From assembly GCA_947478395.1 (NCBI GenBank), contig CANJVR010000001.1, positions 160,001 to 224,000 on the forward strand: 64,000 nt of DNA, written 5' to 3'. How positions within the stretch are numbered: the first letter of the stretch is position 1; every line of letters begins with the position of its first letter. Positions 11,043-40,409 of the stretch are shown one piece after another. The notes below the pieces were generated by a model. It was given only the letters and a program-made list of their open reading frames with translations. It was not told the origin of the DNA and did no database searches. The position numbers and the translations under genes were made by a program. This stretch comes from Opitutia bacterium (GTDB taxonomy: Bacteria > Verrucomicrobiota > Verrucomicrobiia > Opitutales > Opitutaceae).

Positions 11043-11502
11043 GGGAACGCTAATCTTCGCTAATGAACGCTAATCTCATGAAACCGGAAATCTATAGGGA
11101 GGAGGGATACAAATTCATGGGCGCGGCATTCGAGGTCTACAACGACCGCGGTTACGGTATGGCGGAGGAGATTTACCAAGAGTGCTTGGAGATCGAACTG
11201 GAGCTACGGGCCTTCCCGTTCCATTCCAAACAAGAGCTGGTCAGTTTCTATAAAGGCCGCGAACTCAAGAAGGCGCTACCTGCCCGACCTGTTCGTATTT
11301 GGCTGCCTCGTCGTGGAACTAAAGGCCGTCACTCAATTCACTCCCGACCACGAGGCCCAACTCTACAATTACCTCCGCCTCACGCGTCAGCCCGTCGGGT
11401 ACCTCATCAACTTCGGACACAAGGACGCCCTCGAATGGAAGCGTCTCATCCTCTCCGAGTTCATTCCGTCATCAGCGCAGATTAGCGCAGATTAGCGTTC
11501 CC
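11043..11502 (+). mobile_element. GxxExxY cassette 1 bounded by 32-bp inverted repeats (3x10-nt cgctaatct units)
   Basis: gggaacgctaatcttcgctaatgaacgctaat versus atcagcgcagattagcgcagattagcgttccc (27/32 complementary); fills the junction between two permease genes. Confidence 0.6.
11078..11495 (+). pseudogene. GxxExxY (PD-(D/E)xK-like) protein with a +1 frameshift
   Basis: GAAFEVYNDRGYGMAEEIYQECLEIEL, an extra G at ~11273, then the other frame reads RYLPDLFVFGCLVVELKA...HEAQLYNYLR...GYLINFG. Confidence 0.85.
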
Positions 11503-32696: not shown

Positions 32697-32836
32697 CTCG
32701 TGCTCGTGATTCATGATCGTAGGCTTAGACGAAGGCACGCTACGAGCACGAGTAATACCAAACGCGCGAACGAATTTAACCCCAGATCACACGGACAACA
32801 CGGCCCACTCGCGCTGCTGTATCCGTGTCATCCGTG
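32697..32836. repeat. Two short periodic inverted repeats (ctcgtg 6-mer; cacgga 9-mer)
   Basis: ctcgtgctcgt/acgagcacgag perfect 11 bp; cacacggacaacacgg/atccgtgtcatccgtg. Confidence 0.6.
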
Positions 32837-36468: not shown

Positions 36469-39111
36469 TCATGTCTCCTGCCGCAAAATTTCCAGCGGCG
36501 GATGATCCGTCACGCCGCGATTGGCGAGCAGCCCAGTGATGAGCGTCACGCTCGACGCTATCGCGACCGCTCCGAGCACCAGCAGCGGCGGAGCCGAGGG
36601 GGTGAGATGGAAAACATACTTAGCCAACAGCGCGTTACCCGCGATCGCGAGTCCGCCACCGACCACCGCCGCGAGCACGCCGAGGATCGCGTATTCCACC
36701 ATCTGGATTTGCACGAGTTGGCGCCGCGTCGCACCGAGCGTCCGCAGCAAAACCGTTTCGCGCACGCGTTGATACCGCCCTGACAGCACCGCACCCGCCA
36801 GCACGATGATACCCGTCGCCACGGTGAACAGCGCCATGAACTGAATCACGAACGCGACCTTCGAAAAAATGCTGTCGAGCGTTTCCATCACGAGCGCGAC
36901 ATCGATCGCCGACACATTCGGAAACGCGCCCACTACCTCGCGCTGGACTCGCGCCGAATCCGCCGGCGTGGCCGTGCGCAGCGCCGCGACAAATGTCTTC
37001 GGAGCGCCCTCGATCGCGCCCTCGGGAAATACCACAAAAAAATTGGAGTCGAGCCGCCGCCATTCCACGGCGCGCACACTCGTTACTTTAGTCCGCACCG
37101 GTACGCCCTGCACGTCCCACTCGATTTCGTCGCCCAGCTCCAGTTGAAGGCTTTTCAGAAAACTTTCCTCGACCGAAATGGGCACCACCGCTACGCCGGC
37201 CGACACCTGGCCGTCGAACTTGCCCGCAACCACGCGCTCGGTGCCGCTCAATTTACCGCGGTACGTCGAACGGTATTCGCGTCCCAACATGCCATTGGCC
37301 ATACGTCCGCCGGGTTCACCCCCACGACCCAACCGCCCGCCACCTGCACCACGCCGCGTCCCGCTGCCTGGGGGCGGCGGGTTGGGATCATCCGACAGTG
37401 AAAGGTCCGGCGCAGCACTCACCCGCGGACGCGTGATTTCCTGCACCGTGCGGCCTTTGAGCGCGGCGATTTTCATCGTCACAATCGGAGCCTGCTGCAG
37501 CACCGGCGCACCCTGAGCGACCGCCAGTTTATCGAAGGCCTCGATTTGGTCGTCCTGGATATCGAAGAACAAGAGATTGGGCCGCGAGCCGCCGCCGACG
37601 GCATCGATTTCGCGCAGCAAGGTTGTGCGCGTGAGGTAAAGCGTGAGAATTAAAAACGTCCCAAGACCGAGCGAAAGCAGCAGCAACACGGTGCGGTTGT
37701 TCGGCCGGTGCAGATTCGCCACGCCCTGCCGCACCACGTACGGCAGCGCGCGGGGTACCCAGCGACGGGCGGCCCACGCCACCCCCGCTGCGAGGCCGGC
37801 GAGCACGCCGAAGCCCACCGCCAGCATACCCGTGAAACCCAGGCCAATCCGCCAGTTGTGCGTCTGCGTATAGGCGAAGCCCGTGACGGCGACGACGATC
37901 AAGGCCACGATCAGGATACGCCAAGGATCACCCACGCCCCCGACGCGTTCCGCGAACGCCGAGCGCAGCGCCACGAGTGGCGAAACTCGCCGTACCGCGA
38001 GCAGCGGCAGCAGCGTGAAGAGAAGCGAGATCACCAGCCCGGCGGCCATGCCGCGTCCGACCTCCGCCCACGCAATGAAGAAATCGACCTGAAACGGCAG
38101 CATACCCTTCAACATCGCGGGCAACGAGAGCTGCAGCGCCACACCGAGTGCGCCGCCCAGCACCGCGCCAAAAATCCCAAGCGCGAAGCCCTGCACCAGA
38201 TAAACCGCAAAACTCTGCCCGGCGCTCGCACCCAGACAGCGCAGCACGGCCACCGTGGTGATTTTTTGCCGTACATACACATGGATGGCGCTCGCGACGC
38301 CGATCGCGCCGAGGAACAGCGCGATAAAACCCACTAGATTAAGAAAGCCCTCGATGTTCGTCAGCACCTGACCGAGATCACGTTTGCGCTCGGCGACGGT
38401 CGCCGCCGACACCCGGCGTCCGCGAAATTTGTCCCGAATCTCACGATCGATGACATCGGGATCGCGTCCCGCCGGCAGCTTCAGCAGCACGCGGTGTACG
38501 GCGAGATTTTCTTTGTTCCCGAGCTCGGTCGATTCCAGCCGGCTCATTGGAATAAAAGCACGCGGGGCAAACGTCGCAATGGCGGACGACTCGCCGGGGA
38601 CTTTTTTCAAGGCCGCAGCGACGATGAACGTGGCCTTGCCAAGCTTCACGCTGTCGCCGGGTTTGACGTTAAACTGATTGAGTAACGTCTCCTCGAGAAT
38701 CACGACCGCTTCACCGGCCCGCAGCCGGGCGGGAGCGTCGGCGGGCGACGTTTCAAAATCGCCGAAGAAAGGAAAATTTTTCTCAACCGCCCGCACCTGC
38801 ACGAGCCGCGTGGCATTCGCCGCGGTGGGAAACACCAGCATCGACGAAAATTCGGTGGTGGCCGATTGTTCGCCGCCGAGCGCGTCAAGGTAGGTCTTAA
38901 GGTCCGCATCCGGAGCAGCGCGGGAGGTCACGATCAGATCCGCGCCGAGCAGGCCCTTGGCCTGCAGATCGATGGCGTCCTTGAGATTGACGGTGAATGA
39001 ACCGATCGCCACGAGCGCGGCGATGCCGAGGACCACCGACGACGAGAACAGCGCCAGCCGCTGCCGCGAAGCCCGCGAATCCCGCCAGGCCATTTTTAAG
39101 ATGAAGTTCAT
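36469..39111 (-). CDS. ybbP: ABC permease, YbbP/FtsX type
   Basis: MAWRDSRAS, LLGADL, VLRCLGA, PNLLFFDIQ, LRTLGA; two FtsX halves; linked to ybbA/tesA. Confidence 0.88.
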   Translation of the reverse strand: MNFILKMAWRDSRASRQRLALFSSSVVLGIAALVAIGSFTVNLKDAIDLQAKGLLGADLIVTSRAAPDADLKTYLDALGGEQSATTEFSSMLVFPTAANATRLVQVRAVEKNFPFFGDFETSPADAPARLRAGEAVVILEETLLNQFNVKPGDSVKLGKATFIVAAALKKVPGESSAIATFAPRAFIPMSRLESTELGNKENLAVHRVLLKLPAGRDPDVIDREIRDKFRGRRVSAATVAERKRDLGQVLTNIEGFLNLVGFIALFLGAIGVASAIHVYVRQKITTVAVLRCLGASAGQSFAVYLVQGFALGIFGAVLGGALGVALQLSLPAMLKGMLPFQVDFFIAWAEVGRGMAAGLVISLLFTLLPLLAVRRVSPLVALRSAFAERVGGVGDPWRILIVALIVVAVTGFAYTQTHNWRIGLGFTGMLAVGFGVLAGLAAGVAWAARRWVPRALPYVVRQGVANLHRPNNRTVLLLLSLGLGTFLILTLYLTRTTLLREIDAVGGGSRPNLLFFDIQDDQIEAFDKLAVAQGAPVLQQAPIVTMKIAALKGRTVQEITRPRVSAAPDLSLSDDPNPPPPGSGTRRGAGGGRLGRGGEPGGRMANGMLGREYRSTYRGKLSGTERVVAGKFDGQVSAGVAVVPISVEESFLKSLQLELGDEIEWDVQGVPVRTKVTSVRAVEWRRLDSNFFVVFPEGAIEGAPKTFVAALRTATPADSARVQREVVGAFPNVSAIDVALVMETLDSIFSKVAFVIQFMALFTVATGIIVLAGAVLSGRYQRVRETVLLRTLGATRRQLVQIQMVEYAILGVLAAVVGGGLAIAGNALLAKYVFHLTPSAPPLLVLGAVAIASSVTLITGLLANRGVTDHPPLEILRQET

Positions 39112-39117
39112 GAAGAA

Positions 39118-39679
39118 TTGCCCACGGAACACACGGAATACACGGAAATCTCAGAGGACGAAGCGCTCATGTTCGATTTTGGGAAAGTGGCCAAAGTTTA
39201 CGAGCAGCCCGACCCGAAGGCCCGTCGCGTGAAGATAATTTTGAACCTGAGCGCGATGCTCGTCGACCAGCTTGGACACCGCTTTTATTTCCACGATCAC
39301 TTTGCCGAAGCAGACAAAATCCGCGACGTAGCGCTGCTTGAGCGGATGCCCCTTGTAGTTCAAGGCGAGCTGCACGAGCGCCTTCGCCGGAATTTCCCTC
39401 AGTTGGAATTTTATTTCGAGGCACTCCTGAAATACCGCCTCAAGAAACCCACAGCCCTTGTCACGATAAACTTCAAAGCATGCTCCGAGAAGCCGGTACG
39501 TTTCGTCCTCGTTGATAAGTTTACCCATGATCCCTCTTCCGTGAATGCGGTTTTTTCGGTGAACAACTTCAGCCTCTGTCATAACTCCTCCTTCGCGGAG
39601 GGGACATTCGATCATTGGCTCGAAATAAATCCTGCGCCTCATTTCTTGTTTCCGTGTGTTCCGTGTGTTCCGTGGGCAA
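39118..39679 (-). mobile_element. GxxExxY cassette 2 bounded by 31-bp inverted repeats (3x10-nt cacggaaca units)
   Basis: ttgcccacggaacacacggaatacacggaaa versus tttccgtgtgttccgtgtgttccgtgggcaa (30/31 complementary); sits between ybbA stop and ybbP start. Confidence 0.65.
39151..39528 (-). CDS. GxxExxY protein (PD-(D/E)xK-like putative nuclease)
   Basis: GACFEVYRDKGCGFLEAVFQECL, YVADFVCFGKVIVEIKAV, HRAQVQNYLHATG..VGLLVNFG. Confidence 0.9.
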   Translation of the reverse strand: MGKLINEDETYRLLGACFEVYRDKGCGFLEAVFQECLEIKFQLREIPAKALVQLALNYKGHPLKQRYVADFVCFGKVIVEIKAVSKLVDEHRAQVQNYLHATGLRVGLLVNFGHFPKIEHERFVL

Positions 39680-39681
39680 AC

Positions 39682-40374
39682 TCAGCTTCTGTCATCGCTC
39701 ACCACCGCGCCGTTTTTGAGCCGGATCACGCGCTGACATTTCCGCGCCAGCTCCATGTCGTGGGTGACGAGCACCAGCGTCGTTCCTTTTTCGCGGTTCA
39801 ATCCGAACACCAAATCCACCATCGCCGCCGCGGTGTCGCCATCGAGATTTCCCGTCGGCTCGTCGCAAAACAAAATCTTCGGCCGGTTCATGAACGCCCG
39901 CGCCAGCGCCACGCGCTGCTGTTCGCCGCCAGAAAGCTGCACCGGATAATGTTCACACCGCTCGGCCAACCCAACCCGTCCAAGCAAGGCCCGCGCTTCC
40001 GCTTCGGTCGCCGCGCCGCCTTCACCGCGCAATTCGAGCGGGACGAGCACGTTCTCCAGTGCCGTCAGCGTCGGGATCAATTGGAAATTCTGAAACACAA
40101 AACCCACGTGCGCGTTTCGCACCCGTGCGCGGCCGTCTTCGTCGAGCGCACCCAGTTCTGAGCCGGCCACGCTGACGGTCCCGCTCGAAGCCCGATCGAG
40201 CCCCGCGCACAAACCGAGGAGCGTCGTCTTCCCGCTCCCGCTCGGGCCCACGATCGCCAGACTCGCACCGGCCTCGAGGTCGAAGCTCACCTCCCGCAAT
40301 ACCGTCAAAGGGCCCGCCGCCGTGCGGTAACTTTTGGTGAGTCGCTCGACTTTCAAAATGGATTGGACACTCAT
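39682..40374 (-). CDS. ybbA: ABC ATP-binding protein, YbbA type
   Basis: GPSGSGKTT, GFVFQNFQL, LSGGEQQRVA, DEPTGNLD; divergent from tesA. Confidence 0.88.
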   Translation of the reverse strand: MSVQSILKVERLTKSYRTAAGPLTVLREVSFDLEAGASLAIVGPSGSGKTTLLGLCAGLDRASSGTVSVAGSELGALDEDGRARVRNAHVGFVFQNFQLIPTLTALENVLVPLELRGEGGAATEAEARALLGRVGLAERCEHYPVQLSGGEQQRVALARAFMNRPKILFCDEPTGNLDGDTAAAMVDLVFGLNREKGTTLVLVTHDMELARKCQRVIRLKNGAVVSDDRS

Positions 40375-40381
40375 TAAGTCG

Positions 40382-40409
40382 CCTACGAAACACACGAAAC
40401 CCACGAAAA
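40382..40409. repeat. Solo 3x10-nt arm (cacgaaaca type) upstream of ybbA start
   Basis: cctacgaaacacacgaaacccacgaaaa, 7 nt from the ATG. Confidence 0.7.

Follow-up and report, generated by a model that had tools for sequence, protein, structure and literature searches.

A GxxExxY gene framed by inverted tandem-repeat arms at the ybbA-ybbP junction of Opitutaceae: candidate master copy of a family of gene-less hairpins

Introduction

What is a small, intact, nuclease-like gene doing inside a nearly perfect inverted repeat, wedged between two genes of a host operon? The question is raised by a 64,000-nucleotide stretch of an Opitutia bacterium genome (GenBank GCA_947478395.1, contig CANJVR010000001.1, positions 160,001 to 224,000), hereafter the window, in which a GxxExxY gene and its repeat arms separate a ybbA-like from a ybbP-like gene. 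The initial annotation, made from the letters alone, read gene and arms as one unit that inserts at operon junctions and offered two roles for the arms, either an RNA stem that loops the gene out of the host mRNA or a site on DNA that the encoded protein binds or cleaves. The accessible text of PMC3424549 lists GxxExxY/PDDEXK_3 with function unknown, and other published work mentions the family in passing. We found no published link between the gene and such arms in the literature searched, whose coverage leaves subscription journals largely outside.

Results

A GxxExxY gene enclosed by matching arms

The two arms, each 31 nt long, are complementary at 30 of 31 positions, exactly as first described, and their inverted-repeat score of 28.5 was matched by none of 3000 random genome positions (99.9th percentile 13, maximum 27.5). 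Each arm holds three CACGGAA units, every unit followed by two further bases, and the period is thus 9 nt rather than the 10 nt originally read from these arms, so the argument that one unit spans one helical turn fails for the CACGGAA type; arm types with a 10-nt period do occur at other loci. The location and the intact 125-aa reading frame were correctly called (Table 1), although both the YbbA and the YbbP assignment fall under the equivalog cut-offs. The reported lack of a transposase holds within the cassette region, an Rfam search of that region gave no match, and no target-site duplication was seen at the sites compared, where relatives are too diverged. The degenerate extra triple of units ahead of the start codon is also real and is 73% complementary to the right arm; what had been missed is that it belongs to a duplicate, spaced by 113 nt, that takes in the last ~15 bases of ybbA. 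Within the leader, positions 39598-39629 form a 32-nt inverted match (72%) to positions 39410-39441 of the gene itself, which may be chance.

Table 1. Features of the cassette, its host genes and other arms in the window.
Feature	Position	Strand	Basis
ybbA-like ABC ATPase, upstream host gene	39682..40374	-	PF00005; best NCBIfam match YbbA, below cut-off
Left arm, three CACGGAA units, 9-nt period	39649..39679	-	
Cassette leader; starts ACAAGAAAT, terminates in duplicated ybbA tail	39567..39648	-	
Decayed second left arm, 113 nt from the first	39537..39566	-	
GxxExxY gene, 125 aa, predicted Cas4-like PD-(D/E)xK fold	39151..39528	-	profile matches and model
Right arm, inverted; ybbP ATG 6 nt further on	39118..39148	-	
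ybbP-like permease, downstream host gene	36469..39111	-	profile match
Second window cassette, flanked by two sugar-ABC permease genes: GxxExxY gene with a frameshift, arms of CGCTAAT units at 10-nt period	11048..11502	+	
Solo CACGAAA-type arm directly upstream of ybbA start; worn copy in most relatives	40384..40408	+	
CACGGAA arm of decayed gene-less pair, right before a start codon	6481..6508	-	

The protein is a predicted Cas4-like nuclease under purifying selection

The window protein matches PF13366 at 131 bits (cut-off 22) and TIGR04256 at 128.7 (cut-off 35); PF13366 is its sole Pfam family and no HUH/Y1 domain is present. A structure predicted from a 72-row alignment reached a pLDDT of 95.9 (42 for a single-sequence model), and its top Foldseek match was Cas4 SSO0001 (PDB 4ic1; E 7e-5, TM 0.61), with RecB-type and phage exonucleases next. 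VIA-align, used as a second aligner, likewise placed Cas4 first (Z 7.9), tied with restriction-type folds. Holliday-junction resolvases were weaker fold matches and T7 endonuclease I a sequence match at E~1; the sequence search against solved structures returned nothing significant. Residues D70, E80, K82, Q94 and Y98 are conserved and all present in the window copy, Q94 and Y98 presumably forming the QxxxY motif. Fold matches and the conserved D70, E80 and K82 confirm the suggested membership of the PD-(D/E)xK superfamily, and the model points to a Cas4-like fold and a predicted nuclease that would share with Cas4 and RecB both the fold and the D...ExK and QxxxY residues, while fold alone shows no function. 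Unlike Cas4, the protein is only 125 aa long and has no CRISPR context among the neighbours checked.

Copies at the ybbA-ybbP site are intact in 70 of 71 cases, with a median dN/dS of 0.05 across 10 pairs with unsaturated dS, which indicates purifying selection. The window copy itself departs from its family at two residues: position 40 is K (E40K), against E in 125 of 126 aligned rows, and the motif tyrosine is replaced by F (Y33F). On sequence grounds these departures may impair it.

Arms accompany GxxExxY genes at many operon junctions

Strong inverted repeats flank 179 of 212 scoreable GxxExxY loci, compared with 4 of 179 distal control flanks, in a sample consisting mostly of Verrucomicrobiota and close homologues. 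The junctions that hold armed genes include trpB/trpA, gatA/gatB, nusB/ftsY and pyrB/pyrC (names inferred from Pfam matches). These counts support the proposal that gene plus arms form a unit at operon junctions and run against the prospect, raised alongside it, that GxxExxY genes elsewhere lack such arms. Plasmids almost never carry the gene (7 of 72,556), and of six plasmid-record loci from other phyla that we opened, two passed the arm threshold, both in Bacteroidota. No GxxExxY gene was found in 50,697 phage records, and viral contigs gave three loci; we accordingly rejected a phage origin of the cassette.

This genome carries four GxxExxY loci, all with arms and each with a different unit; one is intact, and the other three are distant and decayed. 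An arm of CACGGAT type at window positions 32821-32836 represents a fourth unit type, linked to another GxxExxY clade.

The ybbA-ybbP junction is an old site with changing occupants

From relatives picked by ybbA similarity alone we gathered 90 ybbA-ybbP loci, 87 of them scoreable. A GxxExxY cassette occupies 46 of these 87 Opitutaceae junctions, a gene-less insert 12 and a short gap 9, while the remaining 20 show a 4-base ATGA stop/start overlap, the same overlap as in E. coli K-12. Removing the window cassette does leave 8 nt between the genes, as had been calculated, but real empty junctions overlap by four bases, and the 8-nt remainder is therefore not the ancestral junction. Loss by deletion is directly visible, as a clean deletion relative to a sister locus (L147 versus L066) and as a junction that retains both arms around a gene reduced to its first codons (L171); the cassette is thus an old, often lost resident of this site. 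Vertical conservation in all relatives, which the initial annotation had named as the contrary outcome, describes half of what we see: occupation of the junction is old and widespread, yet some relatives lack a cassette, and occupants have been exchanged.

This exchange is evident from the arms. Three main types occur at the junction, CACGGAA, CACGAAA and CGCGAAT, and a separate group of proteins goes with each. Unit type changes 29 times on the protein tree against 76.9 times in shuffles (211 proteins, 157 labelled rows), but 27 times against 28.1 on the host tree (67 rows), or 23 against 22.6 when restricted to 46 unbiased rows; the host tree, built from ybbA and ybbP, recovers genus codes with 31 changes against 60.7. 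Arm type tracks the protein and is random on the host tree, which means that cassettes have been swapped at one site, although a protein tree built on few columns, with many of its forks open, gives no firm order for these events. Nine close pairs differ in cassette type, and in the eight pairs with both proteins scored the flanks are 88-97% identical and the proteins 45-65%, with flank identity holding at 0.90-0.96 right up to the junction. A former occupant is still traceable as a CGCGAAT arm outside a CACGGAA cassette (L102), L096 retains the first bases of its sister's arm, and a second arm start was found in 8 of 69 junctions. The protein at L096 belongs to the CACGAAA clade and sits in CACGGAA arms, likely an independent unit switch that is useful for locating specificity residues.

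Could the protein be a homing endonuclease that cuts the empty ybbA-ybbP allele, so that recombination copies the cassette in and the arms are incidental? CACGGAA-armed genes lie at this junction in 41 of 46 cases, and this site loyalty, a pattern of gain and loss with 28 presence changes, and the purifying selection would all suit such an enzyme. Excess sharing with distant same-type hosts is nevertheless about zero in all ten flank windows, meaning that no co-conversion is seen, with the reservation that old events could lose the signal. The tails of empty junctions are moreover unalike, close relatives of the gene occupy other junctions (L063, L065), and homing leaves the gene-less families described below unexplained; we regard it as quite improbable.

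Several junctions show unusual joints between host gene and cassette. In five (L009, L013, L014, L085, L091) the ybbA frame continues through the left arm to a stop codon that overlaps the start of the GxxExxY gene as ATGA, and in two (L015, L173) the ybbA stop falls within an arm unit. L189 has a deletion that extends from the DFVCF-coding stretch of the gene, a stretch similar to the right arm, into that arm.

Gene-less hairpins depend on the presence of the gene

Arms also occur in the absence of any gene. In this genome we found 33 CACRRAH-type arrays along with several short gene-less inverted pairs, mostly at gene junctions, with some pairs lying between divergent genes. We counted exact arm doublets of the three ybbA-ybbP types in 68 genomes, of which 48 are occupied (the 46 junctions above plus two cut by a contig end) and 20 have the ATGA overlap; the 21 genomes with a short gap or a gene-less insert were excluded. 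Occupied genomes have a median of 33.5 doublets (minimum 2, own two arms subtracted) and empty genomes a median of 0 (maximum 9), in a set that includes several incomplete assemblies, and in which repeats may be under-assembled. A hand tally of contrasts within a genus or between sisters finds agreement in 7 of 7 (g1, g16, g18, g48, g61, g79, g7/g70).

The counts also follow the type of the gene. Most genomes hold several doublet types, and the commonest is that of the resident cassette in 31 of 46 genomes, where shuffles give 16.7 (p 1e-4). CACGGAA and CACGAAA genomes show this clearly, with own-type shares of 0.58 and 0.59, and the match is weak for CGCGAAT genomes, at 0.36 against 0.37 for CACGAAA, where the search pattern is one base longer. 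Ten of the 20 empty genomes contain other PF13366 genes, and a control type, CACRGAT, was found in eight of these ten, with up to 51 copies, against one match in total across the ten empty genomes without any PF13366 gene. CACRGAT thus follows other GxxExxY genes, so the lack of doublets in empty genomes is not a general genome property. Matching gene-less hairpins thus number in the dozens where the gene is present and are almost lacking elsewhere, which makes it likely the master gene of an apparently undescribed mobile-repeat family. The largest expansion, 183 CACGGAA doublets, is in a genome (G119) whose own ybbA-ybbP cassette is typed CACGAAT and encodes a long-branch protein.

Of the 48 occupied genomes 41 have a Y1 transposase, as do 14 of the 20 empty ones; we rejected it as a sufficient cause, and it may still help. 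The single Y1 gene of this genome (C1:347100) lies elsewhere, has no CACGGAA-kind arms and has a second copy of its 5' part ahead of it.

The same co-occurrence counts are predicted if the nuclease is a caretaker that recognises the arms without moving them, resolving cruciforms or stems while another enzyme or replication errors spread the hairpins, which would then be tolerated only with the cognate gene, as in an addiction. We rate this possibility as unlikely, though deserving of attention, given that it fits the purifying selection, the near absence from plasmids and phages, and the appearance of Holliday-junction resolvases and, at E~1, T7 endonuclease I among the weaker matches. It gives no reason why every type frames its own gene, nor does it explain why the arm types are absent or nearly so in empty genomes when 14 of these have a Y1 transposase, or why one gene-less copy bears the inner ends of a cassette.

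Gene-less copies carry cassette ends and nest in one another

That copy, a pair at a gatA/gatB-like junction (C1:129352-129421), consists of left arm, ACAAGAAAT, CTGA and right arm, and carries the inner ends of the window cassette, namely its inner 9 bases and its stop-codon end. Among five congeners the same junction is empty in three (TGATG overlap) and holds another CACGGAA pair in one and a CGCGAAA pair in one; two GxxExxY cassettes with CACAGAG arms were also found at gatA/gatB. One genome of the empty type (L334) retains a decayed CACGGAA pair at another junction. At many of 20 loci, a hand-picked set of neighbouring matches, a hairpin of one type sits in the loop of another, in both orders. 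Species also differ in their inner arms and spacers at orthologous sites whose flanks are 96% identical. Like insertion sequences and MITEs, the family therefore has terminal inverted repeats and internally deleted copies (L171 and the gatA/gatB pair); unlike them, it has no recognised transposase and no multicopy autonomous element, there being one intact copy.

Paired sites at operon junctions might instead serve a domesticated global regulator that binds them and tunes expression. Junction location and sequence-conserved cores agree with this, and it is the reading given to similar pairs in Geobacter, where the accessible text of PMC2700814 describes 21 opposite-strand pairs of three tandem TCTCCGTS[Y] units with variable spacing, and related repeat classes at trp and proBA junctions, as putative sites of IHF/HU-type regulators. 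The Geobacter pairs have the same build as gene-less GxxExxY pairs, and that main text, as far as accessible, links them to no nuclease gene. A regulator is, however, hard to reconcile with sister species that swap or lose gene and sites, with the turnover of inner arms and spacers between nearly identical flanks, and with retained catalytic residues, and we consider it very improbable.

The arms look more like a DNA site than an RNA stem

The two roles initially offered for the arms fared differently. On the minus strand the cassette folds into a long stem (z -4.4, 20 shuffles), which lends the RNA loop-out some weak support. Arm mismatches at 168 loci, however, comprise 120 G-U on the mRNA strand and 147 A-C (p 0.11), hence no G-U bias, and 304 that are unpairable, and the stem starts anywhere from 49 nt inside ybbA (-49) to 49 nt past its stop (+49). 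Core bases are mostly 88-100% conserved, apart from the middle-unit G of CACGAAA arms (55-71%), and the first spacer base is free. The two arms of a locus agree above within-type shuffles at outer bases and at some free positions (51 versus 38 of 93); possible reasons are shared ancestry, hairpin-templated correction and pairing.

We therefore consider it improbable, if less so than homing or regulation, that the cassette is an mRNA intervening sequence whose arms form a stem that RNase III or the encoded protein excises, with an RNA-linked spread. Besides the stable stem, this account can point to right stems that end a median of 7.5 nt ahead of the next ATG, to the four PF05635 (23S IVS protein) genes of this genome, all of which share the layout with ~7-nt-periodic arms, and to the Coxiella 23S IVS with tandem heptamers and an RNase III site at the first repeat (PMC4990558, accessible text). 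Set against it are the mismatch spectrum, cores that are kept by sequence, left stems lying within the ybbA reading frame in 17 of 68 cases, and pairs located between divergent genes. The stem in the RNA is probably tolerated as a by-product, or offers RNase III a secondary site. One metatranscriptome (share 0.12), available as contigs only, showed no joints and did not cover the gene; one RNA contig, from a near-identical strain, carries an additional 9-nt unit in an arm.

The other role, arms as the site of the protein, gains indirect support from a unit that follows the protein tree and from gene-less copies that follow the gene. Residue-base covariation gave high raw scores at positions 7, 10, 14 and 22 because these mark clades, and among the pairs listed no residue-base pair survived phylogenetically independent contrasts, for which two to three supported pairs were available.

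Discussion

We lean, by a small measure, towards the reading of the cassette as a master copy whose nuclease recognises the arms and drives their spread. Recognition of its own arm type, which we predict for the protein, would spread or renew same-type gene-less hairpins at gene junctions throughout the chromosome. The protein would bind the three phased units at each end and nick or cut there, possibly on an extruded hairpin or single-stranded DNA, as the Cas4/RecB-type fold suggests; repair by the host would afterwards place the piece at stop/start junctions, by rejoining or by copying. Insertion would favour the loop of an existing hairpin, a preference that would account both for nested hairpins and for cassette replacement at ybbA-ybbP. 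Against this reading, we know of no strand-transfer chemistry in a 125-aa PD-(D/E)xK domain, and we found neither a fixed element boundary nor a target duplication at the sites compared. More tentative, and in our judgement somewhat short of an even chance, is the broader claim of a new class of mobile DNA whose elements encode a single factor, this stand-alone 125-aa Cas4-like nuclease. It would recognise phased heptamer arms and spread gene-less hairpins both to stop/start junctions and to the loops of rival hairpins, and specificity variants would displace one another at a fixed chromosomal site. As a mobiliser it would be very small, and to our knowledge the PD-(D/E)xK fold is not known for mobilisation.

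The closest known parallel is the RAYT-REPIN partnership. RAYT genes occupy a fixed extragenic site, are rare on plasmids and are flanked by cognate repeats, and REPINs are abundant only with the gene and decay after its loss, according to the accessible text of 10.1101/2021.07.10.451892. The GxxExxY system resembles it in its fixed site, its rarity on plasmids, its cognate flanking repeats and its variable-spacer doublets that depend on the gene. It differs in that the protein is a predicted Cas4-like PD-(D/E)xK enzyme and not an HUH Y1 transposase, in that its arms are direct tandem 7-mers with a 9-10-nt period and not palindromic REPs, in that the gene lies inside one doublet, and in that its phylogeny is incongruent with the host, its type being random on the host tree and Mantel values within types weak. 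The term 'tandem inverted repeats' does not occur in the main text of Bertels 2017, and Quentin 2018, in its accessible text, describes TIRYT elements with other ends.

Other published repeats share part of the design. The intervening sequences of 23S rRNA, which encode S23p/four-helix-bundle proteins, likewise place a small ORF with host-transcript sense in a stem with tandem short repeats (PMC4990558, accessible text), whereas the GxxExxY cassette lies at an mRNA junction, has a predicted nuclease ORF under purifying selection and is accompanied by gene-less families. The GGGAATC heptamers of Xanthomonas are intergenic tandem repeats with 70-75 convergent pairs per genome; they differ in their 7-nt period and were studied as G-quadruplexes, with no cognate gene reported in the accessible text (PMC4692102). 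The partnership of cassette and repeats thus appears to be undescribed, while gene-less pairs of this build are already in print as putative regulator sites (PMC2700814). It provides GxxExxY/PDDEXK_3 with a concrete candidate substrate and with natural protein-arm pairs for testing. If the master-copy reading is true, it would explain paired tandem repeats so far taken as regulator sites, and it would add to RAYT-REPIN a second, independently built partnership of master gene and repeat, with a bearing on how repeats persist.

Two further kinds of repeat accompany the arms in this genome. A GC-rich REP-like palindrome adjoins single arms at C1:538142, C2:230238, C2:677359 and C2:747794, apparently inserted in hairpin loops. 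The four PF05635 four-helix-bundle genes (C1:294155, C6:13568, C2:840643, C1:431169) all lie at stop/start junctions and may constitute a parallel system, a cassette family with a non-nuclease protein. Gene-less pairs of the four-helix-bundle kind also exist, including at the ybbA-ybbP junctions of relatives (L143, L145, L153, L157, L159, L161).
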